Origin: Dubosiella newyorkensis
GTDB lineage: Bacteria > Bacillota_I > Bacilli_A > Erysipelotrichales > Erysipelotrichaceae
Length of the DNA: 32,000 nucleotides
Assembly (NCBI RefSeq): GCF_001945605.1
Contig: NZ_MPKA01000058.1
Coordinates: forward strand, 30,001-62,000
Direction: 5' to 3'
In this document: positions 1 to 32,000 of the stretch, in pieces
How the letters are laid out: each line of letters opens with the position of its first letter
Numbering within the stretch: the first letter of the stretch is position 1
Translations under genes and position numbers: made by a program
The notes under the pieces: generated by a model
What the model was told of the DNA's origin: nothing
Databases searched by the model: none
What the model saw: the letters and a program-made list of their open reading frames with translations, nothing else

Positions 1-2
1 GA

Positions 3-611
3 CATCTTCAAAACAATTTCAACCACCACCGCATGGAATCGGTGCTGGATTCGATCATATTGAAAGTCAAGAAAAACACCACGATCAAGGATTTTTATAC
101 GCCTGCGATCGCGAATTGTTCCTTGTCAGAATCTAGAGCGATCGCTAGAGTCTATATTCCTGCGATCACCTCGATCTTCAATACAAAAATCGAACCCCAT
201 ATGATCAAAGAAACACTCGACAATTGGCATTTTATTCAAAAGGCGGAATATGATCCTAGCGGCCATAAGTTGAGTTCACTGAAAAAGATAGAAAAGGGGC
301 TTCGGAAAAAGAATATGGCTAGTGGTCTGATCGTTCCAAATGTTCCGGAAGATAATTATGATGTGTGCAATCTGCTGCATAGAGCTTGGAGTCATCCTTG
401 CGATGCTTCTTTAGTTTATACAAAATCTTTTTTTGATTTGTATGAGGAAGCGATGAAGAAAGCTTTGGATGCGATCGCTCTCTTTCTAAAAGCGGTGCAA
501 GATCCGAAAAACAAAGAGGAGTTTTTAGAGTTTTTAGGGGATCGCAACTATAATACAGGAATAAAGAATCCACCAGAAATGAAAAATTTCGATGTATGCG
601 ATTTCTTTTAG
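3..611 (+). CDS. hypothetical protein, 5'-truncated by the window edge (C-terminal ~200 aa)
   Basis: Frame 3 is open from nt 3, with no stop before the ATG at 33. It ends at TAG 609-611 and is followed by a hairpin terminator. I do not recognise the family. Confidence 0.5.
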   Translation, partial: HLQNNFNHHRMESVLDSIILKVKKNTTIKDFYTPAIANCSLSESRAIARVYIPAITSIFNTKIEPHMIKETLDNWHFIQKAEYDPSGHKLSSLKKIEKGLRKKNMASGLIVPNVPEDNYDVCNLLHRAWSHPCDASLVYTKSFFDLYEEAMKKALDAIALFLKAVQDPKNKEEFLEFLGDRNYNTGIKNPPEMKNFDVCDFF

Positions 612-633
612 AGCGTGTAAACGCTCTTTTTTT
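610..633 (+). terminator. rho-independent terminator
   Basis: Stem AGAGCGT, loop gtaa, stem ACGCTCT, then T6. Confidence 0.8.
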
Positions 634-710
634 CTTGAAACTTTTACTATAGACCGATGAAACAATTTTCAGTATAATGATTTGGTAACACAAAAAAGAG
701 AGGTGACTTG

Positions 711-1550: not shown

Positions 1551-1551
1551 T

Positions 1552-2943: not shown

Positions 2944-2955
2944 TTTCATCTCGAA

Positions 2956-2988
2956 AGCATGTTCTTGATGTTGGAACATGCTTTTTTT
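2956..2988 (+). terminator. rho-independent terminator of the nfnAB unit
   Basis: Stem AGCATGTTC, 9-nt loop, stem GAACATGCT, then T7. Confidence 0.85.
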
Positions 2989-3009
2989 GTTTTTTGACAA
3001 TTGTAAGGG

Positions 3010-3038
3010 TTTACATCTAAAGAGGGAAGTTGTATTAT
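3010..3038 (+). promoter_or_regulatory. sigma-A-like promoter (TTTACA-17-TATTAT, TG just upstream of -10)
   Basis: -35 TTTACA at 3010-3015. -10 TATTAT at 3033-3038, preceded by TG at 3031-3032. Confidence 0.5.
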
Positions 3039-3044
3039 AGAGGC

Positions 3045-3170
3045 GGATAAAGTTGAGAAAAGGCTCAGTCTCAACCTCTCACATACATACATCCTTCCTT
3101 AAGTATGTGAGTTTATTTATTCATATCGATTCCTTTCGATACAGAAAGAAAGCACTGCGGTGCTTTTTTT
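3045..3170 (+). ncRNA. candidate ~125-nt structured small RNA (or efp leader) with its own promoter and terminator
   Basis: Three hairpins at 3052-3075, 3078-3111 (9-bp stem) and 3124-3141. Terminator AAAGCAC-tgcg-GTGCTTT plus T-run at 3149-3170. No ORF longer than 7 aa. I recognise no known RNA family. Confidence 0.35.
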
Positions 3171-3232
3171 CTTGAGTTGACAAATGAAAGACAATTCACT
3201 ACATTTATAATGTACTTAAAGGAGATTAGAGA

Positions 3233-3793: not shown

Positions 3794-3802
3794 TAACAAT
3801 TC

Positions 3803-3834
3803 AGATGCAGTCCTCCTGCATCTTTTTCTTTTCG
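3803..3834 (+). terminator. rho-independent terminator of efp
   Basis: Stem AGATGCAG, loop tcctc, stem CTGCATCT, then TTTTTCTTTT. Confidence 0.8.
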
Positions 3835-3895
3835 TCAACTTTAACTCTAAATTTTATTCGTGTATAATAGTAAAGATTACTTAAGGGAGGTCATT

Positions 3896-4804: not shown

Positions 4805-5460
4805 TGCATAAGATCAATGTTGCGATCGATGGCCCCAGCGGTGTAGGAAAAAGCAGCGTTTCTGATCGTCTTGCGCAAGACAATCAAATGATTCATCTCG
4901 ATACAGGGGCTATGTATCGCTGTGTCGCTCTTGCTTTAAAGGAAAATGGAGTAAGCTTGCGTGATCACGAGGCCGTTGAACATGTATTGAATACTTTGAA
5001 GATCCGCTTCGAGGGATCGAAGGTCTTTTTGAATGGCCAAGATGTCTCGGAAAAGATCCGGACAAACGCGATCTCGAATTTCACTTCGAAAGTGTCTTCG
5101 CTTCCTGAAGTACGGAAAAAGATGGTCGCTTTGCAGCAAGAGATCACTAAAGATAAAAATTATATCGTCGATGGGCGTGATATTGGAACAACTGTTCTTC
5201 CAAACGCGGAAGTGAAGATCTTTTTGACCGCTTCTCCAAAGGCACGAGCGCAGCGTCGATATGATGAATATATGATGAAGGGGATCGAATGCGATTATGA
5301 AACGATATATCAAGATATCGTAGCCCGCGACTACCAAGATTCGCATCGCGAGATTTCGCCGCTGTGCGCCAGTGAAGACGCCTATCAGCTCGATACTTCG
5401 GATATGACGATCAATGAAGTCGTAGAGGTGATTCAGGAGATAATGGATAAAAAGCTCTAG
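4804..5460 (+). CDS. cmk: cytidylate kinase
   Basis: P-loop IAIDGPSGVGKSS, plus DTGAMYR and DGRDIGT. The ATG overlaps the previous stop (TAATG). Confidence 0.93.
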   Translation: MHKINVAIDGPSGVGKSSVSDRLAQDNQMIHLDTGAMYRCVALALKENGVSLRDHEAVEHVLNTLKIRFEGSKVFLNGQDVSEKIRTNAISNFTSKVSSLPEVRKKMVALQQEITKDKNYIVDGRDIGTTVLPNAEVKIFLTASPKARAQRRYDEYMMKGIECDYETIYQDIVARDYQDSHREISPLCASEDAYQLDTSDMTINEVVEVIQEIMDKKL

Positions 5461-5475
5461 GAAAGGAGCATAAAA

Positions 5476-6780
5476 ATGATACGTGGAACTATTGCGTTGG
5501 TGGGACGCCCTAATGTTGGAAAATCGACAATTTTCAATCGCTTGATCGGACAAAGAAAGAGTATCGTGGAAGATACGCCTGGAGTAACGCGCGATCGGAT
5601 CTATGGGATCCTTGATTGGCTCACTTTACAGTATCGATTGATCGATACGGGCGGGATCCAAATCGAAGATCAGCCGTTCAGTGAAGAAATCAATATGCAA
5701 GTCGAGATCGCGATCGAAGAAGCGAATGTGATCGTCATGATCGTTTCTGCCAAAGAAGGGATCACAAGCGATGATGTGGCAATCGCGCGCAAACTCAAGA
5801 AATCGAATAAACCGATCATCCTGGCAGTGAATAAAGCGGATAATGAATCGCTTCGCATGAATATTTATGAATTTTATGAGCTTGGCTTGGGCGATCCGAT
5901 CCCGATCAGCGGAGCTCATGGTTTAGGCTTGGGTGATTTGATGGATATCGCGGTTAAAGATATGCCAGATCAAAAGATCCCCGATTACGAAGGGATTACC
6001 TCGTTTTGTGTCATTGGCCGTCCAAACGTTGGAAAAAGCTCGCTTGTGAACGCGATCTTGAAAGAGGATCGTGTCATTGTCAGCGATGTACAAGGTACGA
6101 CAAGAGATGCGATCGATACTCCTTTTAAATTTAATGATAAAGAATATATGATCATTGATACTGCGGGTATCCGAAAGCGCGGAAAGATTTATGAGAATAT
6201 TGAAAAGTATTCGATCCTTCGTGCCCAAAGCGCTATCGAGAGAGCGAATGTCGTTCTCGTTTTGATCGATGGCGAACTTGGGATCCGGGAACAAGATAAG
6301 CACGTGGCAGGTCTTGCTCACGAAGCTGGAAAAGGTGTGATCATCGTTTACAATAAATGGGATACGGTCGAAAAAGACGATAAAACAATGAATAAGATCA
6401 CAAAAGAGATCCGGGCTCATTTTAAATATTTAGATTATGCGCCAATCGCTTTCGTATCCGCCAAAACGAGATCTAAAGTCAATCAATTGATCCCTCTGAT
6501 CGATACGGTCCACGATTACTGCACGATGCGGATCGCTACGAATGTTTTGAACGATGTCATATTGGACGCCCAAATGATGAATCCTCCAAAACCTCACAAC
6601 GGCAGACAGCTTAAAATCTTATATTCTTCGCAAGTGGCCGTAGAACCACCAACCTTCGTGCTCTTTGTCAATGATCCGGAATTGTTCCATTTCTCGTATA
6701 AGCGTTATCTTGAAAATAAATTGAGAGAAGCGTTCGGATTCGTAGGAACTCCATTGCATATCATGGTGCGCAAAAAATAG
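5476..6780 (+). CDS. der: ribosome-biogenesis GTPase Der (EngA)
   Basis: Two tandem GTPase domains: GRPNVGKST twice, DTGG and DTAG, NKAD and NKWD. There is a KH-like C-terminus. RBS is AAGGAG. Confidence 0.95.
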   Translation: MIRGTIALVGRPNVGKSTIFNRLIGQRKSIVEDTPGVTRDRIYGILDWLTLQYRLIDTGGIQIEDQPFSEEINMQVEIAIEEANVIVMIVSAKEGITSDDVAIARKLKKSNKPIILAVNKADNESLRMNIYEFYELGLGDPIPISGAHGLGLGDLMDIAVKDMPDQKIPDYEGITSFCVIGRPNVGKSSLVNAILKEDRVIVSDVQGTTRDAIDTPFKFNDKEYMIIDTAGIRKRGKIYENIEKYSILRAQSAIERANVVLVLIDGELGIREQDKHVAGLAHEAGKGVIIVYNKWDTVEKDDKTMNKITKEIRAHFKYLDYAPIAFVSAKTRSKVNQLIPLIDTVHDYCTMRIATNVLNDVILDAQMMNPPKPHNGRQLKILYSSQVAVEPPTFVLFVNDPELFHFSYKRYLENKLREAFGFVGTPLHIMVRKK

Positions 6781-6792
6781 AAAGTGATAGAT

Positions 6793-7788
6793 ATGAAAAT
6801 AGTTGTTATTGGGAGCGGAAGTTGGGGAACTGCGCTTGCCCAAACTTTAGCGGATAATAATCAGGATGTTCTGCTCTATGGTGTTGATCAAAATGAGATC
6901 GAAAATATCAACGAGCATCATCGAAATGAGAAATATTTCAAAGGGGTCGATCTAAATCCTGACTTGAAAGCGACAAACGATATTCACTGCGTCAAGGATG
7001 CGGATATGATCGTTTTGGCGGTTCCAACGATCGCGATCGAGCCTATCTGTAAACAGATCGATCCGCTTCTTGAAAAGAAAGCGATCATTGTCAACGTTTC
7101 TAAAGGCTTTCAACCTGGAACAAATGAAAGAATGTCTGAAGTGATCCGTCGAACGATTTCGAAGGATCATCTTTCCAGTGTTGTTTCTTTGATCGGTCCT
7201 AGTCATGCCGAAGAAGTCGTGTTACGGCAGCTCACTTCGATCGATGCGATCTCTTTAAAGGAAGAGGATGCAAAAGCTGTTCAGGAGCTGTTTTCGAATC
7301 ATTATATGCGGATCTATACCGGAAACGACGAGATCGGAAGCGAATTAGGGGCTGCGATCAAAAATGTCATGGCGATCGCTTCTGGGATCTTGGCTGGTCT
7401 AGGGTATGGAGATAATACGCGCGCGGCTTTGATCACTCGCGGCTTGCAGGAAATGATTCGGTATGGAACGCATTTTGGCGGAAAACCGCAAACATTTATT
7501 GGACTTACGGGCATTGGCGATCTAATCGTCACTTGCTCGAGCGTACATTCTCGTAATTTTCAGGCAGGATATCAAATTGGAAAAGAAAATACAGTTGAAA
7601 ACTTTTTAAAAAATAATAAAAAAACAGTAGAGGGTGTACGGACAGCGAAGATCGTTCACGATGTGGCAAAAGAAAATGGGATCGATATGCCGATTTGCGA
7701 AGAAGTGTATCAAATCTTATACGAAGGCAAGAAGCCTGAACATTGTGCGAATGATCTCATGATCCGTAAATTGAAGGCGGAATTTTAA
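6793..7788 (+). CDS. gpsA: NAD(P)H-dependent glycerol-3-phosphate dehydrogenase
   Basis: MKIVVIGSGSWGTALA Rossmann N-terminus, plus GPSHAEEV and KNV.AIA.G. ATG 6793 is preferred to the GTG at 6784. Confidence 0.9.
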   Translation: MKIVVIGSGSWGTALAQTLADNNQDVLLYGVDQNEIENINEHHRNEKYFKGVDLNPDLKATNDIHCVKDADMIVLAVPTIAIEPICKQIDPLLEKKAIIVNVSKGFQPGTNERMSEVIRRTISKDHLSSVVSLIGPSHAEEVVLRQLTSIDAISLKEEDAKAVQELFSNHYMRIYTGNDEIGSELGAAIKNVMAIASGILAGLGYGDNTRAALITRGLQEMIRYGTHFGGKPQTFIGLTGIGDLIVTCSSVHSRNFQAGYQIGKENTVENFLKNNKKTVEGVRTAKIVHDVAKENGIDMPICEEVYQILYEGKKPEHCANDLMIRKLKAEF

Positions 7789-7789
7789 T

Positions 7790-8083: not shown

Positions 8084-8104
8084 GGAATGTCCTTAATCTT
8101 TTTT
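8079..8104 (+). terminator. rho-independent terminator after hup
   Basis: Stem ATTAAGGA, loop atg, stem TCCTTAAT, then CTTTTTT. Confidence 0.8.
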
Positions 8105-8118
8105 AGGAGGTAGATATT

Positions 8119-8649: not shown

Positions 8650-8666
8650 AAGAAAGAAGACGAATT

Positions 8667-9596: not shown

Positions 9597-10823
9597 ATGA
9601 CTGGTGAGCAGTTATTGATTGAATTCACGAAGGAAAATTTTGCGAAAAAGGTTTATCGGATCCAAGAAAATGTCTATTATTTTGTTGGATTCGGCAACAG
9701 CAATGTTACAGCGATCATAGGAGATTCATCGATCATTTTGGTCGATACTCTGGATTGTGATCTCTTTGCGAAAGATCTAAAAAAGGAGTTGGAATCGATT
9801 ACTACAAAACCTGTAGAAACGATCATCTACACTCATCGATGTCCAGATCATATGGGTGGAGCGGGAGTTTTTAAGGATACTGTAAAAGAGGTGATCGCTT
9901 TTGATAAACTGACTGAAGATTTGAAGTACTATGACAAACTTGAAGATATTATCAATATGCGAAAGGTTTTCGCTAGAGGCTATGGATTGTCGGACATCGA
10001 TGCCATCACGCATGGAATGGGTCCTCGTGAAGGTTTTATCAAGGAGGGGGCGCAACGTGCTTTTCTTGAGCCGACAACGATTTATACAGGAAAGTCTGTC
10101 GAACGTCGAATTGATGGGATTCCGTTCAAATTGATCCGGATGCCGGGGGAAACAAAAGATTCGATTTCGATTTTGCTGCCTGAATCAAACATCATGATGG
10201 TGGGGGATAATTATTATGGTGTTTTTCCAAATATGTATAGTGTTCGTGGATCCTCGTATCGAGATGTAGCGAATTGGATCGACGTGATCGATTCGATCTT
10301 AGCGCTAGATCCAGAAGTCGTGCTTCCAGGACATACGAATCCGCTCATTGGAAAAGCGGAAGTGCAAAAGAATTTGAAGAACTTCCGAGACGCACTGGAA
10401 TATGTTTTGATGAAGACATTGGAATGCATGAACAATGGTTTATCGATGAATGAATGCGCCGAAGCGGTAAAGCTGCCAGATCATTTGCAAACTCCTTTTT
10501 TAGGAGAATACTTCTCATTGGTCGAATGGGCTGTCAAAGCGATCTATACTGGATATCTAGGGTGGTTTGATGGAACTGTCAGCAAATTGATGCCAACAAG
10601 CGATGAAGAGTATCGAGAAACGATGCTTTCTTTGATTGGCGAGGATCTGCTTCGCGCAAAGATCAAGGAATGTATCTTTTTAGAAAACTATCAGATGGCA
10701 TTGCAGCTGAACTGGTTTTTACAGGATGATCAATTGGAAAAGATCGCGCTGAAAGGAAGAGCGACTCAAGTAGCGAACGCGAACGCCAGGCATTATTTTC
10801 TAGCACGTGCGAATGAACTATAA
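9597..10823 (+). CDS. MBL-fold hydrolase related to SdsA1-type alkyl/aryl-sulfatases (MBL plus dimerisation domain, no SCP2 domain)
   Basis: ATG 9597 is preceded by GGGGG. The track start at 9528 overlaps a TATAAT box (9524-9529). The metal motif reads THRCPDHMGG. YTGYLGWFDGTVSKLMP resembles the start of the alkyl-sulfatase dimerisation domain. Confidence 0.6.
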   Translation: MTGEQLLIEFTKENFAKKVYRIQENVYYFVGFGNSNVTAIIGDSSIILVDTLDCDLFAKDLKKELESITTKPVETIIYTHRCPDHMGGAGVFKDTVKEVIAFDKLTEDLKYYDKLEDIINMRKVFARGYGLSDIDAITHGMGPREGFIKEGAQRAFLEPTTIYTGKSVERRIDGIPFKLIRMPGETKDSISILLPESNIMMVGDNYYGVFPNMYSVRGSSYRDVANWIDVIDSILALDPEVVLPGHTNPLIGKAEVQKNLKNFRDALEYVLMKTLECMNNGLSMNECAEAVKLPDHLQTPFLGEYFSLVEWAVKAIYTGYLGWFDGTVSKLMPTSDEEYRETMLSLIGEDLLRAKIKECIFLENYQMALQLNWFLQDDQLEKIALKGRATQVANANARHYFLARANEL

Positions 10824-10943: not shown

Positions 10944-10967
10944 AAGAAGATCTCTCCAGATCTTCTT
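10944..10967 (-). terminator. rho-independent terminator of the lipoprotein gene
   Basis: Stem AAGAAGATCT, loop ctcc, stem AGATCTTCTT. On the minus strand it is followed by TTTTTTATTT. It overlaps the stop codon. Confidence 0.75.
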
Positions 10968-18769: not shown

Positions 18770-18788
18770 TCGTTTTTAAAGAAACAGT

Positions 18789-18817
18789 TTGACAGAATGG
18801 AAAAAAGGCCATAAAAT
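18789..18817 (+). promoter_or_regulatory. near-consensus sigma-A promoter (TTGACA-17-TAAAAT) with no ORF behind it
   Basis: -35 at 18789-18794 and -10 at 18812-18817. Confidence 0.5.
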
Positions 18818-18821
18818 TGAA

Positions 18822-18914
18822 TTGTAAATACAAGATGTATTTACAATGATTTACGGCTTTACCTACAAAAGAATGAAATAAAAAGAAGGATTCAGCCGTA
18901 TTCCTTCTTTTTTT
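18822..18914 (+). ncRNA. candidate ~90-nt small RNA (or a purB 3'-UTR element)
   Basis: Perfect 10-bp hairpin TTGTAAATAC-aagat-GTATTTACAA at 18822-18846, next to the predicted TSS. It ends at the 18883-18914 terminator. The longest ORF is 11 aa and has no SD. Confidence 0.3.
18883..18914. terminator. bidirectional rho-independent terminator
   Basis: Stem AAGAAGGA, 11-nt loop, stem TCCTTCTT. An A-run lies upstream and T7 downstream. Confidence 0.75.
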
Positions 18915-19031
18915 ACAAATTTTTGCCTTGCGTGGATAAATGTAAAGCGAAAGAAATTATAGTGGAATAAACCCCCTATTCTACATAAATTTCTCGTATT
19001 CAAAATACATCTTTACATTTATTATTTGTGT

Positions 19032-19058
19032 GCGGTATCATTCGATACCGCTTTTTTT
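19032..19058 (+). terminator. plus-strand intrinsic terminator overlapping the larB stop codon
   Basis: Stem GCGGTATC, loop attc, stem GATACCGC, then T7 on the plus strand only. On the minus strand the hairpin is followed by ACACAAAT. Confidence 0.6.
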
Positions 19059-19715: not shown

Positions 19716-20475
19716 ATCCTCCTTTTTTGAGTCCTTCTAAGTCAAAGGTCACATATCGGTATCCTAGCGCTTTGATTGCTTGGATCAATTTGGGTTCCAT
19801 AATCACTCTCTCTATATTCTTTAGATCAGTTTCGATTCGAGCAAGCTCTCCATGATCGCGCAAACGAACATCCTCGATCCCGGCTTGATGTAGAAGATCC
19901 TCTCCAGATTCGACTTTTTTTAATAAAGCAGGATCAAGAAGACGTTCATAGTCGAATCGAGAAGCAAGACAAGCGTTGGCTGGACGAGACGCGGAAGTTA
20001 AACCATACTGCTTAGAATATGAACGGATCTCTTTTTTGCTCAACCTTGACAAAGGAGAGACGATTCCTAATTCTTGGCATGCTTTTTGTCCAGGACGAAA
20101 TTCTTTTTGATCATCTTGATTTTGACCATCTAAAACGACAAAAAAACCTCGCTTTTCACTTTCTTCTAGAACGGCTGCCATGATTTTCTTTTTACACGAA
20201 TAACAACGATCTCGAGTATTGTGTTGAAAATCAGGGATGGAAAATACATCCATATCTAAGACCAAATGATCTTGCGCTTTCATTTGGTCTAGCGCGCATT
20301 CCTGATCTCGATTGGGAACCATACAACCTTTTACAAAGATAGGTAAAACGTTTTCCTTACCTAACACCTCATTACAGATCGCTAAAAGAAAGTTTGAATC
20401 GCATCCGCCACTATACGCGATCGCAACCTTTTTATAGGCTGCGATCGATTGTTTTAATTCATCAAGTTGATTCAT
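19702..20475 (-). CDS. larE: LarE-type ATP-dependent sulfur transferase (PP-loop ATP pyrophosphatase)
   Basis: PP-loop AYSGGCDS. It has ANACLASRF, the position of the sacrificial Cys in Lactiplantibacillus LarE, plus CYSC at residues 91-94. It overlaps larB by 14 nt. Confidence 0.8.
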   Translation of the reverse strand: MNQLDELKQSIAAYKKVAIAYSGGCDSNFLLAICNEVLGKENVLPIFVKGCMVPNRDQECALDQMKAQDHLVLDMDVFSIPDFQHNTRDRCYSCKKKIMAAVLEESEKRGFFVVLDGQNQDDQKEFRPGQKACQELGIVSPLSRLSKKEIRSYSKQYGLTSASRPANACLASRFDYERLLDPALLKKVESGEDLLHQAGIEDVRLRDHGELARIETDLKNIERVIMEPKLIQAIKALGYRYVTFDLEGLKKGGYDRG

Positions 20476-21383
20476 TGAAGTCCTCCATTTTGAAATCCTT
20501 GGTAAAAAAGCTCGATCGTATCCGCCATTCTAGACCCGGGAAGCACATTTTCCAATGAAACCGGCACAAAACGATTTTGTTGCACCGCCTCGAGCTGTGA
20601 TAGAGCGGGATCCGATTTGATCGTTTCGATCTTCTCTTCCAAAGAAGGGACGTCGTAATCATGGATCACGATCACATCCACATCTCGATGCAGAATTTCT
20701 TCTGGACTGATCGTGATCCAAGCTCGATCTTGAAGATCATGAAAAATATTTCGTCCACCAGCTTTTTCGATGAGTCGTGATTCAAAATTCGAGCCACTCG
20801 CGCTTTTTACTCCTCCAGCTTCGCTATCGTAGACAAGAACGTTCATAGGTTCCTTATTTTTTAGTTGATCCTCGATTTTTTGGATCCGATCCTTTTGATC
20901 TTGGATTAGAGCATCGGCTTTTTCCTCGATTTGAAATCGTTTCCCTAATTCTTCGATTTCCTCAAACTCTTCTTCGATTGTTTGTGCATCATTGATCATC
21001 GCCTTGATCCCAAATTGCTCCAACTCATCGAGTCGGATCCCTTCTTCTCCAAATTCCCAATCGATCCCATATATAAAATCCGCCCCACTGCCCATGACCG
21101 CTTCTCGAGTCGCACTTCCATACGTCAGCTGCGGAATCGAAGCATACTCTTCTTTATAACGTTCTAAGGGACCTCGAGAATGATTGTTTAAAGTCGAGCC
21201 AATGACACGATCCTGTAATCCTAATGCACAAAATAGCTCTGTACAATTCGGACCAAAAGTTAAAACGCGCTCTGGGATCGAGGATACGTCTTGATTTTGA
21301 ACTGGAGAAGGCGCACATCCTGTGATCAATAAACCGAACACAACACTAAATTTTGTAAATTTACTCTTTAATCTCAAATTCAT
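20472..21383 (-). CDS. ABC transporter substrate-binding lipoprotein (class III, FhuD/BtuF/CeuE-like)
   Basis: Lipobox LITGC. About 300 aa, matching the periplasmic binding protein family that pairs with FecCD permeases. ATGA overlaps occur on both sides. Confidence 0.7.
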   Translation of the reverse strand: MNLRLKSKFTKFSVVFGLLITGCAPSPVQNQDVSSIPERVLTFGPNCTELFCALGLQDRVIGSTLNNHSRGPLERYKEEYASIPQLTYGSATREAVMGSGADFIYGIDWEFGEEGIRLDELEQFGIKAMINDAQTIEEEFEEIEELGKRFQIEEKADALIQDQKDRIQKIEDQLKNKEPMNVLVYDSEAGGVKSASGSNFESRLIEKAGGRNIFHDLQDRAWITISPEEILHRDVDVIVIHDYDVPSLEEKIETIKSDPALSQLEAVQQNRFVPVSLENVLPGSRMADTIELFYQGFQNGGLQ

Positions 21384-23168: not shown

Positions 23169-23201
23169 AAATCTTATCATTAAAGTATAGTCTAGTGACA
23201 A

Positions 23202-25319
23202 CTATTTCTTTTTTAGGAAGCGACGCAACCAACTCGTAAACGTAGGACTGGTTTTTTCAGGAATATAATTTTGATTTTTCGCCCATTCGATCTCCTCTTC
23301 TTGTGAATCGTATCGGCCATTTTCTCCAACATCGATCGTTTTATACGTTCCATCGCTTTGCAACTCTCTTCGCTTGGTATTGTCTTTGAGAAGTCTTTGG
23401 TAATAATCGATCACTTCTTGTTTAAGCGCTGGATCCAAGATCGGAACAGCGACCTCGACTCGACGTTCCGTATTTCTAGACATAAAGTCAGCCGAAGCGA
23501 TATAGACCTTGCATGCGTTGAGCGGACCAAAAATATAGATCCGGGAGTGTTCTAGGAATCGTCCTACGATCGAAAAGATCTTCACGTTTTCCGTATAACC
23601 AGGAACCTGCGGCAAAATACAGCAGATCCCTCGAACGATCAAAATGATCTTTACACCGCTTTGACTCGCCTCAGAGATCTTTTGAATGATATCGATATCT
23701 GTGATGGAATTGATCTTAAACAACGCTTGGGCATCAAGTCCTTGTTTGGCACGTTCGATTTGTTCATCCAATTGTTCCATGACTGTTTTTTTCAAAGAAA
23801 CTGGCGAAACGAGAAGGTTTTCATATTTACCGAAAACATTTGACATGAGCATATTCTGGAAAAAAGCGACCGCGTCTTGTCCAATTTCATTTCTTGCGCT
23901 CATATAACAATAATCGGTATATTGTCTCGCTGTCTTTTCATTATAGTTCCCTGTTCCGATCTGGGTGATCCACCGAGTTTCGCGTTTTGTTTTGTAGGTG
24001 ATCAAGCAGATCTTCGAATGTACTTTATATTGTTCGAAGCCATAGATCACATTGCATCCAGCTTCTTCAAGCCATTCGGCGGCTTTAATGTTGTTGTCTT
24101 CATCAAATCGAGCTCTTAGCTCCATAAGCACAGTGACTTCTTTCCCATTGTCCAAAGCGCGAATCAAATATTCGAGCACTTTGCTTGGCGAAGCCAGACG
24201 GTAGATCGTGATCTTGATCGAGACGACATTGGGATCCACAGCCGCTTCTTTTAGAAGTTTTAAGAAGATCCCGACATCTTGATATGGATAATTGAGCAAA
24301 ATATCGTGATGCAGGATCTGTGGGATCAATGGACGGCTAGGATCGTAGCGCTTTGAGCCCTGCGATTCGAAAGGCGGATAGGTCAAAGTGGAACGGAGTG
24401 CGTCTGGCGCTTTCGCGATCAAAGAAAACACATATTTCAGATCCAATGGGATCTTTGAAAGAAAGACTTGCGACTTGCTGATGTTCAAGTGCTCGCATAA
24501 ATAGTTCAAAGAGCTAGGATGGATATCCCGATAGATCTCTAAACGTAAAGGGGCGAGCCTTGGACGTTTCTTCAATACTTTTTTTACATAGTTGCGATAG
24601 TCCTCATCCTCTGGCGATTCTTCGTTCAACGAGATATCCGCGTTTCGGGTGACTCGAATCGTCGTTTTATTGATCACACTCGATTGGGTAAAGATCCGGT
24701 CGACATTATGATAGATGACTTGTTCTAGGAGCAAAAAATTGTTTTCCATATCCGGGATCGGATAGATGCGTTCCAAATATACTGGGATCGGGATGATGCC
24801 ATATTTTTTGACATCCTTTTCCATCAGTTCGATAAAGATATAAAGCTGTTTATTGTTCAAATGTGGAAATGGATGATGAAAATCCATGATCTGCGGGGAT
24901 AGAAGCGGCAAGATCTCGTCTTCAAAGTATCGGGTAAAATATTTTTTTTGCTTTTTGCTCAATGATTTCCATGAGACATTCGACATTTGCAGATCGAGCA
25001 TCGTTTTATTGAGCTCTTTGTAGATCGTATCGCGCATCGCATATAATTCACGTGTTTGCTCATAGATCGCGGACAATTGTTCTTGAGAATTCATTCCCGT
25101 CCTCTGGTCGATCTTCTTGGGATCGTACAATTCCATATCTTTCAAAGAGCCCACACGCACCATAAAAAACTCATCGAGATTGCTCGTAAAGATCGCTAAA
25201 AATTTCAATCTCTCAAAGATAGGAACGCTAGGATCAGCGGCCTCTTCTAAGACGCGCTGGTTGAATCGAAGCCATGATAATTCTCGATTCTGCATATATG
25301 GATATAGGTGTTCCTGCAT
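23202..25319 (-). CDS. ppk1: polyphosphate kinase 1
   Basis: 705 aa. N-terminal NRELSWL.FN.RVL.EA. Two PLD-like HKD-type motifs (VHSKICLI, RFLEHSRIYIF). Confidence 0.93.
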   Translation of the reverse strand: MQEHLYPYMQNRELSWLRFNQRVLEEAADPSVPIFERLKFLAIFTSNLDEFFMVRVGSLKDMELYDPKKIDQRTGMNSQEQLSAIYEQTRELYAMRDTIYKELNKTMLDLQMSNVSWKSLSKKQKKYFTRYFEDEILPLLSPQIMDFHHPFPHLNNKQLYIFIELMEKDVKKYGIIPIPVYLERIYPIPDMENNFLLLEQVIYHNVDRIFTQSSVINKTTIRVTRNADISLNEESPEDEDYRNYVKKVLKKRPRLAPLRLEIYRDIHPSSLNYLCEHLNISKSQVFLSKIPLDLKYVFSLIAKAPDALRSTLTYPPFESQGSKRYDPSRPLIPQILHHDILLNYPYQDVGIFLKLLKEAAVDPNVVSIKITIYRLASPSKVLEYLIRALDNGKEVTVLMELRARFDEDNNIKAAEWLEEAGCNVIYGFEQYKVHSKICLITYKTKRETRWITQIGTGNYNEKTARQYTDYCYMSARNEIGQDAVAFFQNMLMSNVFGKYENLLVSPVSLKKTVMEQLDEQIERAKQGLDAQALFKINSITDIDIIQKISEASQSGVKIILIVRGICCILPQVPGYTENVKIFSIVGRFLEHSRIYIFGPLNACKVYIASADFMSRNTERRVEVAVPILDPALKQEVIDYYQRLLKDNTKRRELQSDGTYKTIDVGENGRYDSQEEEIEWAKNQNYIPEKTSPTFTSWLRRFLKKK

Positions 25320-25353
25320 AATAACTCACTCCAAATTCATTGATTTCAATCTA

Positions 25354-25362
25354 ATTATAGCA
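25354..25362 (-). promoter_or_regulatory. extended -10 promoter of ppk1 (TGCTATAAT)
   Basis: The minus strand reads TGCTATAAT. GGAG and ATG 25319 follow about 30 nt downstream. Confidence 0.5.
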
Positions 25363-25451
25363 TGCTTCTACAAAAATGCCTTTTGAATGAAACCGACAAT
25401 TTAAACTTATTTGGTTACATTTTATGGAATATGTAATTTATTGTCACACTT

Positions 25452-25482
25452 ACAGACACTGCTTTTTTTGGTCTGTTATAAT
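25452..25482 (+). promoter_or_regulatory. extended -10 promoter of tetR (TGTTATAAT) overlapped by inverted repeat ACAGAC-N13-GTCTGT
   Basis: TG at 25474-25475 and TATAAT at 25477-25482. The IR arms at 25452-25457 and 25471-25476 are a possible TetR operator. Confidence 0.45.
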
Positions 25483-25548
25483 ATAGATATTGCACAGCAC
25501 AGCAAAATTCGTCGTTTTACACTAGCACACTCATAGAAAGGGGTGCCA

Positions 25549-26103
25549 ATGGTTAAAAAGAAAAAATCCAGCCAGTTTCTTAGAAGTTGTATCTTTGAGG
25601 CACTCATGATTTTGCTGCAGCAAAAAAGATATGAAGAGATCACTGTTTCAGAGATTGCTAACAAAGCCGGCGTATCTCGAATGACCTATTATAGGACTTA
25701 CTCTTCTAAAGAAGATATCGTGATCCAGCATTTTAAAGAAAAGCTTCAAGAGATCACAGAGATCGACCCGGCTATCGGAAAGAAACCTCGCATTGAATGG
25801 TATCGAGTTTTGTTAGAATTTGTTTATGAAGATCGCATGCTGATCGAAAAGATCCTTGAAACCCCTGAACTTTCCAAGGCAAGCAATTCCTTCTTGTTTG
25901 AAACGGTCCAAAAGTTTACGCGGAAATACGATCACGCCGATGTCGATGATCCTAAAACGCTTTATGAGCTCACCTATAAAACAGGAAGTTTGACGTCTTT
26001 GATTTCACGATGGGTCCGCAACGGATGCAAAGAATCTGTAGATCAAATCTTAGATTGGATCCGAATCTACGAAAACGATCCTTGTCTAACTATGCATGAT
26101 TAA
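25549..26103 (+). CDS. TetR/AcrR-family transcriptional regulator
   Basis: N-terminal HTH ITVSEIANKAGVSRMTYYRTY. ATG 25549 lies 5 nt after GGGG. Confidence 0.85.
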   Translation: MVKKKKSSQFLRSCIFEALMILLQQKRYEEITVSEIANKAGVSRMTYYRTYSSKEDIVIQHFKEKLQEITEIDPAIGKKPRIEWYRVLLEFVYEDRMLIEKILETPELSKASNSFLFETVQKFTRKYDHADVDDPKTLYELTYKTGSLTSLISRWVRNGCKESVDQILDWIRIYENDPCLTMHD

Positions 26104-26124
26104 GACCGGAAACGGTCTTTTTTT
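26103..26124 (+). terminator. rho-independent terminator of tetR
   Basis: Stem AGACCG, loop gaaa, stem CGGTCT, then T7. Confidence 0.8.
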
Positions 26125-26401
26125 ATCGGTTTCTCCAATATGGCAAATTTCTTAAATAATCAGAATAATATTTTCTCGACTCCTCTTCATCCATCCCTTC
26201 TCTTGGCAGATTCAATACAAGAAAATCAAGCATCTGCTCAAAATCTTGATACACAAAATTCCCATTGTCCAAACACCATTGACAATACCTAGAATCTATT
26301 TCTCCTTCATTCGTTTTAGACATGATCGAATATTCGAGCGGGATTCCACAATACTCGCAATATCGAATTTCTTTGGATTTCAAAAGCGCATCCACACTCA
26401 C
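26123..26401 (-). CDS. zinc-ribbon protein (CxxC...CxxC), probably the C-terminal part of a split XRE-Zn-ribbon regulator
   Basis: It contains YCEYCG and YCQWC. It uses a GTG start in a GTGA overlap with the upstream HTH ORF. Its first residues, (V)SVDALL, look like the last helix of an HTH_3 domain. Confidence 0.6.
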   Translation of the reverse strand: MSVDALLKSKEIRYCEYCGIPLEYSIMSKTNEGEIDSRYCQWCLDNGNFVYQDFEQMLDFLVLNLPREGMDEEESRKYYSDYLRNLPYWRNR

Positions 26402-26565
26402 TCCAAAATATGCGATAAGTTCAACAACAAATCAGGATCCGGTATCGTTTCATCATTTTCCCAGCGAGAGATCGCCTGTCTAGTGATACATAGTTTTTCC
26501 GCTAAGCTATTTTGACTTAATAAAGAAACTTCGCGAAGTGATTTTATCATTGTTCCAGTGCTCAT
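26398..26565 (-). CDS. XRE-family HTH fragment (55 aa; below the ORF-track cutoff)
   Basis: My own translation is MSTGTMIKSLREVSLLSQNSLAEKLCITRQAISRWENDETIPDPDLLLNLSHILE*. It carries the canonical SQ..LA..L.ITRQAIS.WE motif. RBS GAGGA lies 6 nt upstream. Confidence 0.65.
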   Translation of the reverse strand: MSTGTMIKSLREVSLLSQNSLAEKLCITRQAISRWENDETIPDPDLLLNLSHILE

Positions 26566-26603
26566 AGTTTTTCCTCATCCCTATGTTTTCAGTATGCCCA
26601 TAC

Positions 26604-26635
26604 AAAAAAAAAAGAAACAAGCAACTGTTTGTTTC
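26604..26635 (-). terminator. rho-independent terminator ending the recN-to-ygjP operon
   Basis: Minus strand: stem GAAACAA, 8-nt loop, stem TTGTTTC, then T10. Confidence 0.8.
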
Positions 26636-26638
26636 CTC

Positions 26639-28073: not shown

Positions 28074-28978
28074 TCTCCTTCCTTGTCTAAGTCTGGAAAA
28101 TAGGAATCATACGCACGACTTAGACGCTCGTTTTGAATATGCGTATAGATTTGTGTCGTTCGAATATCGCTATGCCCTAAAAGCTCCTGAACACTTCTGA
28201 GATCCGCGTTTCCATCTAGAAGATGGCTCGCGAACGAATGCCGGAAACTATGAGCCGAAATACGAGGATCAAAACCGAGCTCGATCACTTTGCGCTTGAT
28301 CATAGAATGAACAAATTGCCTAGTGATCGCTTTCCCTTTCGGATTCACCAATAAGAGTGAGCTATTTGACGTATTCCATATCGAACGGCATTGCTTTAAA
28401 TATAAACCAAGCTGCTCCTTGCAAGCAAGAGCCATCGGAACGATCCTCTCCTTGTCTCCTTTTCCATGCTTGACCAATACGATCCTTTCCTGCAGACGGA
28501 TATCGTTGACCTGCAGCGCACAAAGCTCTGATACACGCAATCCGCAGCTATACAACATAAGAAGAATCGTTTTCTCATAGATCCCCTCCAAATCAGAAGG
28601 AAAAGAATCGAGAAGCATTTTGATCTGCTCCACGCTTAAATAGACCGGCAAATGCTTCGAAGCAGAAAAGCCTTTATAGCTCCGCGTAGGATTTGGCAAA
28701 GAAGCATCCTCCAAAGAAGCTTGTTTATGAAATGAGCGGATCGAACTGAGCGCTCTCGAACAGCTCGCTTTGGCATGATTTCGCTGGTACTGATCAAAAA
28801 ACGCGTCCAGATCCAAGATCGAGATCTCTTCGATCTTCGTCTTTCCTCGCTCTAAAAGAAAAGAAGTATACGCTTGAAGATCGCTCATATACGCTTCGAC
28901 TGTCTTGATCGATTTGTTTTCTACCGCTTTTAAGTAGATTTCAAAGCTTTCTAACGCTTCTTCGATTCTCATATCCAC
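28070..28978 (-). CDS. xerD: tyrosine site-specific recombinase, XerD-like
   Basis: RHSFASHLL...LLGHSDIRTTQIYTH carries the R-H-R-Y catalytic set. The N-terminal SAM-like domain reads YL.....S..T...Y..DL. I cannot separate XerC from XerD by eye. Confidence 0.7.
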   Translation of the reverse strand: MDMRIEEALESFEIYLKAVENKSIKTVEAYMSDLQAYTSFLLERGKTKIEEISILDLDAFFDQYQRNHAKASCSRALSSIRSFHKQASLEDASLPNPTRSYKGFSASKHLPVYLSVEQIKMLLDSFPSDLEGIYEKTILLMLYSCGLRVSELCALQVNDIRLQERIVLVKHGKGDKERIVPMALACKEQLGLYLKQCRSIWNTSNSSLLLVNPKGKAITRQFVHSMIKRKVIELGFDPRISAHSFRHSFASHLLDGNADLRSVQELLGHSDIRTTQIYTHIQNERLSRAYDSYFPDLDKEGE

Positions 28979-29655
28979 ACGCTTTCTTGAACGATCGCCT
29001 TCGTATTTCCCTCTTTGATGAATTCCACAAGCAGCGCTTTGGCTTGATGATCCCGCGAATCAAAAGCGAGCTGCATCCGTTTTAAAGAAAGCGAATGCTT
29101 CATCCCTAAGGACAAGATCTCTTGGATCCGATCCGGACGATGGACCAAATAAAACCGGCCCTTTGATTTCAAAAGACGGCTCGCATGAAAGATCCAGTCT
29201 TCCAGTCCTCCATTAAACTCGAAGCGGCCAAGCGTTCTATGGTTGATCTTCGTATTCGGATGCAGCTCCTTCATTTCAAAAAAAGGAGGATTGCTGATGA
29301 CGACATCCACAAGAGCATGCTCGACTTCTTGTATCGGAGATAGGATCAGCTCTACGGGAGCTTCGATCCAGCGATCCGCATTGATTTGAGCGATCTGTAA
29401 AGGTTGTGCAAGGCGATCCACCCCGATCAAACGCTTCGGCTTGAATTGATCGGCATATACTAAAAGCACGCCATTATTACAGCCAATCTCGAGCACGCTT
29501 TCTCCTTTTTTGATCTGCATGAACTGAGCCAATAGTCGAGTATCTGTATTGAAACGAAAATGCGCCGGGTGCTGATACACAAGAATATTTTTAGAAATGA
29601 AATAATCAAGGGCGAGCTCGACACCATCAACAACTGGCCTTTCATTTGGGTTCAT
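28969..29655 (-). CDS. N6-adenine-type SAM methyltransferase, TrmN6/YfiC-like
   Basis: Motif I VLEIGCNNG and motif IV VISNPPFF. N-terminal FRFNTDTRLLA. Confidence 0.7.
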   Translation of the reverse strand: MNPNERPVVDGVELALDYFISKNILVYQHPAHFRFNTDTRLLAQFMQIKKGESVLEIGCNNGVLLVYADQFKPKRLIGVDRLAQPLQIAQINADRWIEAPVELILSPIQEVEHALVDVVISNPPFFEMKELHPNTKINHRTLGRFEFNGGLEDWIFHASRLLKSKGRFYLVHRPDRIQEILSLGMKHSLSLKRMQLAFDSRDHQAKALLVEFIKEGNTKAIVQESVWI

Positions 29656-30835
29656 CGCTTCTATCCACTCCTTTTTCTTTTCGCTTCAAAAGATCGGAAG
29701 CGCTCATAAATACATGGCCTGGCATCGCTTTATTGAGTTGGATCAATATATCCTGCGTTGTGTTGATCGGCTTTTCAAATATCGTCGGCTGCTCTACGAT
29801 AGCCGATTCATTTTTTAAAGAGCCAACGCTAATGCCAATGTGCCGATAGCCGACCTCCTCGAAATTCTCTTCGACAAGGGCTTGGATCGTTTCATAAATG
29901 AGAGCGAAATCATTTGTGTCTTGTTTTAAGGTGATCGAGCGCATTTGATTGTGAAACTCTGTATCTCGAAGAACAAGCGAGATCAAACGCCCTTTTTGAT
30001 GCTTCCGCTTCATCCGAAGCGAAAGCTCTTGGGCTAACTCACGTGCACGCATTAGCACTTCTTCTTCTGTAAAAAGATCTACGGGATATGTCTTGGAGAG
30101 CGATACGCTTTTATGGCTTGTTGAAAAATTCAGTTTCGCGCTCGATAGACCTCGCGCCTTTTGGATCAAAGAGTATCCATTTTTTCCTAAAAGACGCATG
30201 ATCTTGTTTTCATTTTCAGGATCCGCGATATCTTTGATCAGATGAATTCCATTTTTTTCTAAAAGCGGCACACTTTTTTTTCCGATCCCGATCATTTTAT
30301 CGATCGTAAGCGGCCAAAGCTTGTTTGGGATCTCGGATTTCCGGATCACCGTGATCCCATTGGGCTTTCTCATATCGCTTGCCATCTTGGCTAAAAATCG
30401 ATTGGGGGCGACGCCGATCGAGCAGGTCAGACCCGTTTCTTCTTTGAGTCCTTGTTGAATCTGGACCGCCATATCCAAAGGTCGTTTATATTTTTTGATT
30501 TCTTCGCTCACATCCAAAAAACATTCATCGATCGAAACCGGTTCAAGTTTATCGCTGTAACGACGCAGGTAATTAAAAAACGCATTAGAAAGCGAACGAT
30601 AATACGGATAGTCGCCAGGAATGATGATCAACTCGGGACACTTTTCTTTCGCCATGAAGACAGGCATAGCCGAATGGACTCCATATTCTCTTGCGATATA
30701 ATTGGCTGTCGATAAAACACCTCTCGAAGATAGCGAGCCGATCGCGATCGGTTTTCCTTTATACTCAGGATGCCGGATCTCTTCCGCGCTGGCAAAAAAA
30801 GCGTTCAGATCGATATGAAAAAGCACTTTAGCCAT
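29642..30835 (-). CDS. dinB: DNA polymerase IV (Y-family)
   Basis: Motifs: FHIDLNAFFASAE, SIDECFLDV, IGVAPN.FLAK.ASD..KPNG. Confidence 0.92.
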   Translation of the reverse strand: MAKVLFHIDLNAFFASAEEIRHPEYKGKPIAIGSLSSRGVLSTANYIAREYGVHSAMPVFMAKEKCPELIIIPGDYPYYRSLSNAFFNYLRRYSDKLEPVSIDECFLDVSEEIKKYKRPLDMAVQIQQGLKEETGLTCSIGVAPNRFLAKMASDMRKPNGITVIRKSEIPNKLWPLTIDKMIGIGKKSVPLLEKNGIHLIKDIADPENENKIMRLLGKNGYSLIQKARGLSSAKLNFSTSHKSVSLSKTYPVDLFTEEEVLMRARELAQELSLRMKRKHQKGRLISLVLRDTEFHNQMRSITLKQDTNDFALIYETIQALVEENFEEVGYRHIGISVGSLKNESAIVEQPTIFEKPINTTQDILIQLNKAMPGHVFMSASDLLKRKEKGVDRSDEPK

Positions 30836-32000
30836 TTTGAACCGACCTTCTAAGCTCCTTCATACTTTGAATCCCGCTTTCACTCGCCTCTCCATTGGCC
30901 ATTGTGGCGAGCTCGATCAAGCGCTCGTTTTCATCGATCGCTTTGATCTGGGTCGTGGTTTTTTCATCTTCCTGCACTTTTTTTACAAGATAGTGGGTAT
31001 CGGCCCAAACTGCGACCGAAGCCAAATGGGTTATACATAAAACTTGATGTTCTTTCGCGATCGTGTGCATTTTATTTCCCATAGCCAACGCGACTTTTCC
31101 AGAAACACCTGTGTCGATCTCATCGAAAATGATCGTGTCGATTCCTTCGCGGGTCTGGAAGACCGTTTTTAGTGCAAGCATGAGACGCGACAATTCTCCG
31201 CCGCTCGCGGATTGTTTTAGAGTGGAAAAAGGTTGTCCAGGATTCATAGAGACCATGAAATGGATCGCGTCGATCCCATTTTTTGAAGCTTTTTTCTCTT
31301 CTCGATCGATTCTGAATCGCGCGTTGGAAAGCATAAGATCTTGGCAATGCGCTTCGATTTCATGGCTTAGCTTCTCGAACACGCTTTGTCTTTTTTGAGA
31401 TAAGGCTTGCGCGAGAATATCGTATTGTTTTTTGGCCTGCGTATAGTTGGCTTCTAGTTTTTCGAACAGATCCTGCCGATGGATGATCCGGTCGATCTTT
31501 TCTTCGAATTCGACTTCCTTTTCTTTGAACGTTCGATAGCTGCCTCCATATTTTCGAAACAGCTTTTTGATCTTGTATTCGCGTTCTTGCAGCTGATCGA
31601 GATCATCCCCTTCGTGAAGGATGTCCTCTTTCTTTTCGCTTAATTGTTCGCTTAGAGCTTGAAGCTGATAATAATGATTTTGTAGCTGATCGGCTTGCTC
31701 ATCAAAAGAGCCGTTTTTATGAAGCTGTTTGTAACTCGAATATAAGCCATCTAAAATCCCATTGTCTTTCGTTAGGGTATAGATCGTTTCAGAGAGATCC
31801 TCAATGTTCTGCTGGCTTTTTGAGAGTTCTTTGATCTTGTCTTGAAGCGTTTCGAGCTCCCCTTCTTCGATCGCCGCGTTTTGAATCTCATTGAGCGCGT
31901 TGGTCAAGTATTCCAGCTCATCATCGGAATACGTTTCATTTTTCGCTTTTTCAAGTTCTTTTTCATGACGATGCATTACTTGATACGCTTGCGCTGTTTC
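30828..32000 (-). CDS. recN: DNA repair protein RecN, C-terminal ~390 aa (5' end beyond the window)
   Basis: The frame stays open past the internal Met at 31976 to nt 32000. It has a coiled-coil region, the SMC-type signature ASGGELSR, and Walker B IIFDEIDTGVSG. Confidence 0.9.
   Translation of the reverse strand, partial: ETAQAYQVMHRHEKELEKAKNETYSDDELEYLTNALNEIQNAAIEEGELETLQDKIKELSKSQQNIEDLSETIYTLTKDNGILDGLYSSYKQLHKNGSFDEQADQLQNHYYQLQALSEQLSEKKEDILHEGDDLDQLQEREYKIKKLFRKYGGSYRTFKEKEVEFEEKIDRIIHRQDLFEKLEANYTQAKKQYDILAQALSQKRQSVFEKLSHEIEAHCQDLMLSNARFRIDREEKKASKNGIDAIHFMVSMNPGQPFSTLKQSASGGELSRLMLALKTVFQTREGIDTIIFDEIDTGVSGKVALAMGNKMHTIAKEHQVLCITHLASVAVWADTHYLVKKVQEDEKTTTQIKAIDENERLIELATMANGEASESGIQSMKELRRSVQNG

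Follow-up and report, generated by a model that had tools for sequence, protein, structure and literature searches.

Why would a bacterium fill its genes with a restriction site? Short restriction palindromes in bacterial genomes are normally avoided or neutral, and the words that are driven to high frequency, such as the highly iterated palindrome HIP1, the uptake signal and DNA uptake sequences (USS/DUS), Chi, and the FtsK-orienting polar sequences (KOPS), are few, each having led to a specific molecular machine. The locus described here raises this question for the tetranucleotide GATC. It is a 32,000-bp stretch of DNA (GC 41.9%), hereafter the window, from Dubosiella newyorkensis, a mouse-gut bacterium of the Erysipelotrichaceae that favors a classic methylation and restriction site instead of avoiding it, and does so through silent codon choice. 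The commonest tetramer of methylation and restriction systems stands here at about one per 56-58 bp and takes up about 67% of its allowed positions, while sister lineages bring it near zero, and this change of sign within one family provides a clean comparative handle. No description of a GATC excess in the Erysipelotrichaceae, or in any Bacillota, was found in the literature.

A contig of the metagenome-assembled genome (MAG) GCA_948596625.1 matches the window at 100% identity, and the NCBI names of the encoded proteins are those of D. newyorkensis, which bears out the guess of a preliminary description, made from the letters of the window alone, that the gene content is Bacillota-like. In the window 34 genes were called at first and 35 after refinement with public gene calls, for a coding fraction of 94%, and a Pfam and NCBIfam scan found ordinary housekeeping content. 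Together with 17 kb of flanking DNA, the readable sequence of this species amounts to 49.3 kb.

GATC frequency and synonymous codon choice

Base composition predicts 118.5 GATC in the window, and 552 are present, one per 58 bp, which gives a zero-order observed-to-expected ratio (O/E) of 4.66. Depending on the gene model, 546-548 of them fall inside protein-coding genes. The 17-kb flanks are equally GATC-rich, and the 49.3 kb as a whole contains 877 sites (O/E 4.78). Over 20 independent assemblies (NCBI, ENA and Logan) carry the same or nearly the same sites, so that the excess is not an assembly artifact. The block counts of the preliminary description are exact (13 in 5461-5820, 18 in 20461-21120, 11 in 23401-23760 and 11 in 30001-30360).

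GATC ranks first of the 256 tetramers in over-representation under the zero-order, dinucleotide Markov and maximal-order Markov models, with O/E of 4.66, 2.32 and 1.50, respectively. The last value sits on the limit at which the preliminary description had proposed to give up its claim, yet we judge that it does not overturn it: the maximal-order model is over-conservative because it is conditioned on the counts of GAT and ATC, and 51% of the GAT and 53% of the ATC trinucleotides are themselves parts of a GATC. A synonymous codon shuffle within each gene, which keeps protein and codon usage and had been called for in advance, yields 304.8±11.5 GATC (maximum 337) and fails to reproduce the 548 observed (z=21); shuffling codon order gives 239, and uniform or N3-weighted synonymous choice 168-169. 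When the synonymous shuffle is extended to all 256 tetramers, GATC is the sole extreme outlier (z=20), with CGAT (z=13) and TCGA (z=7.7) next. An excess beyond base and codon composition had been claimed beforehand and, since neither the Markov ratio nor the shuffle overturns it, it stands. At 1.8 times the synonymous shuffle and, in the main frame, 4.5 times context-free codon usage, the values lie on the side of enrichment and not of avoidance.

The sites are very unequally divided among the three coding phases, with 383 written as nnG-ATC, 152 as GAT-Cnn and 13 as nGA-TCn (the hyphen marks the codon boundary), in agreement with the two phases named in the preliminary description. Its claim that synonymous choice depends on context holds on both sides of the boundary. 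Four-fold degenerate codons carry third-base G in 80% of cases before ATC, in 41% before ATT and in 24-29% elsewhere, and A, C and T share the remaining sites before ATC about equally (fractions of.07,.06 and.07 against.80 for G). Lys is written AAG in 83% of cases before ATC and in 29% otherwise, and Ile is written ATC in 87% after G and in 43-62% otherwise. In the second phase, codons starting with C are preferred after GAT for both Leu (75% vs 52% otherwise) and Arg (97% vs 74%). Expressed as odds ratios, these preferences amount to 5.3 for third-position G before ATC, 7.0 for ATC after such a G, and 3.1 for C-starting Leu and Arg codons after GAT. Measured against a context-free codon usage, estimated only from contexts that are unable to form GATC, 346 of the 575 eligible X-Ile dipeptides (60%) are written G-ATC where 76 (13%) are expected, a 4.5-fold excess that follows each of the 11 amino acids with a G-ending codon (44-78% realized vs 13-39% background). 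Altogether 545 of the 809 protein-permitted positions (67%) are occupied by GATC. That two reading frames and all 11 preceding amino acids take part argues for a nucleotide word, and not a tRNA pair, as the preferred unit.

Relative to the synonymous shuffle, AATC, CATC and TATC stand at 0.68, 0.62 and 0.68, and GATT, GATA and GATG at 0.85, 0.93 and 1.02. The protein sequences are hardly involved, since Ile and Asp contents barely differ from those of orthologs in GATC-poor relatives, which supports the earlier claim of a constraint at the level of DNA and not of amino acids. A drive at the amino-acid level was rejected, as the density of X-Ile in three orthologs is uncorrelated with GATC O/E (rho -0.10), and Asp followed by L, R, P, H or Q shows a weak trend only, which is confounded by GC.

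Other preferences exist in these genes on a smaller scale. CpG has an O/E of 1.36 in the window, and TCGA, mostly written nTC-GAn, exceeds base composition 2.8x and the synonymous shuffle 1.32x (z=7.7). The C-GAT junction is favored 1.72x with or without a following C, and therefore represents a second codon-junction bias that is separate from GATC; further codon-junction biases reach 1.7-2.0x.

The realized fraction is alike in the 34 genes (chi2 p=0.42), and no heterogeneity related to expression or horizontal gene transfer was found. Differences in GATC density among genes track their Ile and Asp contents: der and gpsA, the densest genes, follow their Ile content (10-11%), and their realized X-Ile fractions of 0.62-0.65 are those of other genes. 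The genes for EF-P and HU, the only two highly expressed genes available, realize 3/5 and 2/5 of their positions vs 0.60 overall, and together with the homogeneity among genes this indicates that the effect is not linked to expression. Along genes the realized fraction is flat except in the first 30 codons (0.45 vs 0.62). Gaps between sites are close to geometric (coefficient of variation 1.05-1.09), and against a null that keeps the potential sites no periodicity, helical or longer, was detected up to 120 bp; a phased or periodic array was accordingly rejected in favor of random spacing.

Relatives and variation within the species

The sign of the effect can be followed through the family with a comparison set of 80 der-centered loci of other species, whose gene calls are crude (longest open reading frames, ORFs). 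GATC is depleted in loci of Anaerorhabdus, Solobacterium, Erysipelothrix and Psychrobacillus (O/E 0.25-0.7) and enriched in Firmicutes bacterium M10-2, Erysipelotrichaceae OPF54 and some Solobacterium/Bulleidia MAGs (O/E 2.6-3.8). In Cmk, Der and GpsA across the family, the fraction of X-Ile written G-ATC ranges from 0.00 to 0.64. The GATC-poor relatives avoid the word by identical codon routes, with odds ratios of 0.16-0.35 at its outer and 0.15-0.61 at its inner positions; the corresponding values are 3.1-7.0 and 0.7-1.9 in the window, and 2.8-3.1 and 1.3-1.9 in the pooled GATC-rich relatives.

Avoidance in Anaerorhabdus and Solobacterium suggests that GATC-cutting restriction systems are or were active there. 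The pattern of D. newyorkensis resembles such restriction-site avoidance in its word, its codon routes and the weaker response of the inner positions, and differs in sign, being an enrichment. Since avoidance of restriction sites is an effect at the DNA level, this mirror image of opposite sign supports a DNA-level cause for the enrichment as well. A further difference is that non-coding DNA of the avoiders is as affected as coding DNA (0.50 vs 0.65), whereas the spacers of D. newyorkensis are unaffected. The ORF-free DNA of other GATC-rich relatives is also unlike these spacers, with an apparent enrichment of about 2.4x, a value that carries little weight given the crude gene calls.

Eight der loci of Anaerorhabdus and Solobacterium have an O/E of 0.25-0.7 (L025, L028, L030, L032, L033, L066, L068 and L075), and at L066 none of 234 X-Ile dipeptides is written G-ATC, where 14 are expected. 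The GATC-rich lineages, namely OPF54 and the Solobacterium/Bulleidia and rumen MAGs (O/E 2.9-3.8), are independent and use the same codon routes.

Within the species, 10-13 conspecific contigs with 0.7-1.7% divergence were compared, and background rates were matched by mutation type and taken from the same alignment. Strains carry 280-291 GATC per 17.9 kb, and 272 of the 301 sites are invariant. Synonymous third-position changes that destroy GATC number 12 vs 34.0 expected (P=1.3e-5), and synonymous changes that create it number 10 vs 3.5 expected (P=0.003). The deficit of losses together with the excess of gains shows that the pressure acts now. GATC is no hotspot for C>T changes (9/379 vs a background of about 6.5%), an indirect hint that speaks against unrepaired 5-methylcytosine in GATC. 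One recombinant block shared by three strains (734-1265 in L090, L091 and L094) contains three GATC losses and a linked CATT>GATC change at 1040/1043; GATC turnover therefore travels with recombination tracts.

Explanations for the excess

The explanation that we favor, with about an even chance of being right, is a weak, pervasive and GATC-specific pressure at the DNA level, for which the most plausible link is a solitary GATC methyltransferase whose gene would lie elsewhere in the genome. The pressure would act chromosome-wide on the palindromic target of enzymes of the Dam/DpnII/MboI/Sau3AI family, and would become manifest only where the sequence is nearly free, that is, at the wobble G of the codon preceding Ile and at the wobble C of ATC itself, with GAT-C and the first base of Leu and Arg codons after GAT as secondary routes. 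Its agent would be a GATC-recognizing DNA methyltransferase without a matching restriction enzyme, and a high density of sites would be favored by selection, or by a selection-like bias of repair or conversion. The data show the specificity for the word, its implementation by synonymous codons, the uniformity over genes, the mirror image in relatives and the present deficit of losses and excess of gains; we infer the involvement of methylation and any benefit of dense sites. If the proposed weak force shows only at nearly free sites, amino-acid composition would be hardly shifted, as observed.

Several observations weigh against this explanation. To our knowledge, Dam-bearing γ-proteobacteria lack such an excess, E. 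coli having about one GATC per 243 bp, and methylation alone is therefore insufficient as a cause. The 49 kb of readable sequence contains no gene resembling a GATC methyltransferase, MutH, DpnI/II or Vsr, nor one for a DmtA-type solitary methyltransferase specific for GATC or CGATCG. A phmmer search with E. coli Dam combined with motif scans gave no match among the ORFs of some 1.2 Mb of loci, window included, and a Dam+DpnM profile run against 5.8 billion proteins had only pneumococcal DpnM among the matches listed. The nGA-TCn frame is not enriched (13 vs 16.8 expected), and the odds ratios for GGA and CGA ahead of TCn are 1.0 and 0.7. Spacers are not enriched either (0.85x, upper bound 1.86, vs 4.8x in genes). 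Finally, polymorphism is asymmetric between strands: on the coding strand, C>T at G-ATC is absent (0 vs 13.8 expected), G>A occurs at about its expected rate (9 vs 10.6), and the C is polymorphic at 1/199 sites and the G at 11/180. In the direction of gain, T>C at G-ATT is observed 6 times vs 0.75 expected and A>G at the symmetric position 2 times vs 1.07, the numbers being small and the single-nucleotide polymorphisms (SNPs) linked. A purely symmetric DNA-level force would not predict this asymmetry unless codon-level selection is added, which may account for it, as ATC is favored and G-ending codons generally are not. The strand asymmetry is the best single argument for the rival explanations. 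The SNPs behind the counts of losses and gains lie within shared recombinant haplotype blocks, and their polarity comes from allele frequency only.

Two of these objections lose force on closer inspection. The inner positions respond less in GATC-avoiding genomes as well, and the objection from nGA-TCn is thereby largely weakened. As to the spacers, the preliminary description had called GATC absent from them, which is correct for the three largest (Table 1) and not for the whole: the curated spacers of this species contain 6 GATC in 2,417 bp (31.5% GC) vs 7.0 expected, a ratio of 0.85 (95% confidence interval 0.31-1.86), and are thus neither depleted nor enriched. Within-species diversity (pi) is 0.0072 in spacers, 0.0051 at codon position 1 and 0.0262 at codon position 3, so that diversity in spacers falls about 3.6-fold below that of wobble sites and constraint there is nearly that of replacement sites. 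Under such strong constraint a weak force is expected to be invisible in spacers and visible only at wobble positions. In the Psychrobacillus loci, taken as ordinary Bacillota, GATC in ORF-free DNA lies at about 0.3 of the zero-order expectation vs 0.8 in coding DNA, so that base composition may overstate what is to be expected in spacers. Two intergenic GATC of the window lie 10 bp apart, at 10949 and 10959, between convergent genes ending at 10823 and 10966, and may belong to a terminator hairpin.

Should a GATC methyltransferase be the cause, D. newyorkensis would offer a natural system for studying the effects of dense adenine methylation in Bacillota and the competition of word pressure with codon usage, and a gauge of genome-wide word pressure, with odds ratios of 5-7 per wobble site in every gene. 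GATC-specific m6A methyltransferases are documented in the Mollicutes, the sister group (PMC9465063). On the practical side, Sau3AI would cut D. newyorkensis DNA into fragments of about 60 bp, as would MboI and DpnII if the DNA is unmethylated, or DpnI if it is methylated. GATC of this density affects Hi-C, restriction-based metagenomics, cloning and transformation, and the extreme tetranucleotide signature affects binning.

A more specific form of this idea, which we regard as possible but speculative, is that D. newyorkensis and, independently, some Solobacterium/Bulleidia-like lineages possess an undescribed system that selects for the density of (methylated) GATC itself, with a possible role in defense self-marking, in strand or self discrimination during repair or recombination, or in chromosome handling. 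GATC would then stand beside HIP1, USS or Chi as their tetranucleotide analog and fill about two thirds of its synonymous opportunities, and the family would switch between shunning and accumulating one restriction site according to the GATC enzymes present. USS/DUS and Chi are likewise short words brought to high frequency, mostly in genes, by a process acting on DNA, but their length is 5-12 nt, they are strand-oriented or lack palindromic symmetry, and their density is about one per kb, whereas a 4-mer gives almost no discrimination between self and foreign DNA. Dam/MutH/SeqA systems recognize the same word; they differ in that no homologue was found in the readable D. newyorkensis sequence, and in the genomes of Dam-bearing γ-proteobacteria GATC is near random expectation, local clusters at oriC aside. 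Nor is mismatch repair in Bacillota known to us as methyl-directed. Dam illustrates how a solitary methyltransferase gives GATC roles in repair, replication timing and regulation, with sites in regulatory regions being special (PMC4752239).

Among the rivals, the one that survives best is a codon-context preference at the level of translation or mRNA, in which G before AUC and C after GAU are favored and the palindrome is a by-product; we consider it unlikely. It would explain why enrichment in D. newyorkensis is limited to coding sequence (0.85x in spacers vs 4.8x in genes), why it depends on frame (383/152/13, with nGA-TCn not enriched), why the coding-strand C of G-ATC is almost invariant and the G less so (1/199 and 11/180), and why the realized fraction dips from 0.62 to 0.45 in the first 30 codons, and other codon-junction biases of 1.7-2.0x do exist in the genome. 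Like codon-pair (dicodon) bias, the preference is implemented as a choice of adjacent codons (nnG-ATC). Unlike it, the GATC effect is much stronger, independent of expression and of the preceding amino acid or tRNA, present in a second frame too, and directed at a restriction palindrome that relatives avoid. Against a translational origin, the favored word is precisely the commonest restriction and methylation palindrome. The word is also built in two frames that have nothing in common and follows every one of the 11 eligible amino acids, hence many P-site tRNAs, and third-base G stands at 80% before ATC and 41% before ATT though a single tRNA reads both. Expected expression level has no influence (as judged from the two highly expressed genes available), the weaker response of inner positions recurs in genomes that avoid GATC, and the ORF-free DNA of GATC-rich relatives, crudely delimited, is itself enriched about 2.4x. 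Pairing of GAUC in mRNA with GAUC in the 3' tail of 16S rRNA was considered and set aside, as the preferred flanks (C before, G after) do not extend the pairing.

A neutral, context-dependent bias of mutation or repair, either very-short-patch-like (T:G to C:G at GATT/GATC) or an Elhai-type methyl-directed ratchet, appears rather improbable. The substitutions at one position, in G-ATY, have the right direction, with T>C in excess (6 vs 0.75) and C>T missing (0 vs 13.8), and uniformity over genes and random spacing are what a process blind to function would leave. The precedent in E. coli is Vsr/Dcm at CCWGG, where repair associated with a methylated palindrome is biased such that the site becomes commoner and its deamination product rarer, and the T>C excess and C>T deficit seen here are alike. 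In D. newyorkensis, however, the effect is far larger, and the transversion neighbors are depleted like the transition neighbor: AATC (0.68), CATC (0.62) and TATC (0.68) are affected equally, while a bias limited to transitions should, as we reason for the equilibrium, keep C and T about half as frequent as G. In addition, the symmetric G>A change is not suppressed (9 vs 10.6), spacers are not enriched, and no Vsr-like gene was seen in 49 kb. A methyl-directed ratchet has been modeled for HIP sequences and lends this explanation some support (PMC4390886).

The preliminary description had also pointed to HIP1, the octamer GCGATCGC of cyanobacteria, whose copies at 105, 138 and 471 it located exactly; three further copies occur in the window (Table 1). 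Three octamers within the first 500 bp, and zero-order O/E of 11.7 for CGATCG and 26 for GCGATCGC, give this link an initial appeal, and HIP1 is indeed a GATC-containing palindrome that is highly over-represented genome-wide, mostly within genes and via codon choice. The appeal vanishes once GATC itself is conditioned upon. CGATCG occurs 61 times where independent flanks of GATC predict 62.0 and the maximal-order Markov model 62, GCGATCGC occurs 6 times vs 3.7 and 5.3, respectively, and all sixteen NGATCN hexamers are at Markov expectations. The number of octamers follows from GATC with independent flanks, and they are therefore not a HIP1-type element; the enriched unit is the bare tetramer. 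Neither an octamer or hexamer excess nor a quasi-periodic spacing of about one per kb was found, and the HIP1 reading of the window, with CGATCG or GCGATCGC as its unit, is rejected. HIP1 differs in its 8-mer unit against the 4-mer of D. newyorkensis, in its density of about one per kb against about one per 58 bp without periodic spacing, and in its hosts, cyanobacteria and not a Bacillota gut commensal. HIP1-bearing cyanobacteria even tend to under-represent bare GATC (PMC4390886). HIP1 has been tied to solitary methyltransferases, and selection and repair-ratchet models compete to explain it (PMC4390886, PMC5861425).

Least of all can the excess be an ordinary consequence of composition, amino-acid content or codon usage, or an assembly or library artifact, a view that is extremely improbable: protein and codon usage do raise the expectation from 119 to 305 GATC and the maximal-order Markov O/E is merely 1.50, but three shuffles and the context-free codon usage reject it, the shuffle that keeps protein and codon usage remains 243 sites short (z=21) with a codon usage that the effect has itself inflated (ATC 87% after G vs 50% otherwise), and the sites recur, the same or nearly so, in the independent assemblies.

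Gene content and minor observations

Genes identified in the window include efp, cmk, der, gpsA, hup, msrA, murT/gatD, purC/purB and larB/larE, as well as an iron-type ABC transporter, ppk1, a xerD-like gene, dinB and recN. The first ORF, as public gene calls of D. newyorkensis show, is the terminal part of a phospholipase C gene. Neither an Rfam nor a tRNA scan gave a hit in the window. Features with coordinates are collected in Table 1.

Table 1. Coordinates of features in the window (X-Ile, any residue followed by Ile)
Feature	Position	Strand	Remarks
GCGATCGC octamers (six)	105 (105-112), 138, 471, 7372, 17026, 20417		
Largest spacer, upstream of efp	2944-3232		0 GATC; 34% GC
der and gpsA, densest genes	5476-7788	+	1 GATC per 40 bp
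Spacer between convergent purB and larB	18770-19037		0 GATC; 29% GC
ppk1	23202-25319	-	43 GATC; X-Ile as G-ATC 35/44, the top realized fraction (0.80)
Divergent spacer, ppk1 / tetR-family gene	25320-25605		0 GATC; 33% GC
55-aa HTH_3 (Xre-type) gene, then directly a 90-aa Zn-ribbon_2 gene	26123-26565	-	
S-adenosylmethionine (SAM) methyltransferase, 228 aa, NPPF motif	28969-29655	-	TrmN6/TrmM tRNA m6A37 type

One methyltransferase is encoded in the window, so that to call the window free of such genes would not be strictly right; the statement of the preliminary description that none in the window explains the GATC pattern remains valid, as the enzyme is of the tRNA m6A37 type. The protein has NPPF at residues 122-125, matches the Pfam family MTS (1.5e-11), and aligns over its full length with PDB entries 7wm5, 7wm6 and 3lpm (E ~1e-25). 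Its size and domain layout are those of a TrmM-type methyltransferase, a single Rossmann methyltransferase domain with no DNA target-recognition domain, and NCBI names the product tRNA1(Val) (adenine(37)-N6)-methyltransferase. The exact substrate is a prediction, since the protein scores far below the NCBIfam cut-off for the TrmN equivalog. A PADLOC match to 'mad2' covers the catalytic core only, and the protein was rejected as a GATC DNA enzyme. Its gene sits between dinB and the xerD-like recombinase gene, in an apparent operon recN-dinB-methyltransferase-xerD-mrp.

The HTH_3/Zn-ribbon pair has the lowest GATC density among the coding DNA of the window, and its HTH gene had counted as spacer in the first gene model. 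The cassette could be a toxin-antitoxin-like or recently acquired module. The contig also carries, 0.4-2.8 kb upstream of the first base of the window, genes for a WYL/WCX-domain regulator (315 aa) and, after it, a 498-aa DUF2779 protein with faint similarity to Cas4-like nucleases (L081 5627-8080). WYL regulators are frequent controllers of defense or DNA-damage genes. Opposite real genes lie numerous long antisense ORFs, the longest of 205 aa (e.g., 4936-5553 on the minus strand); the codon-pair and palindrome bias may have produced them incidentally by making antisense stop codons less frequent.

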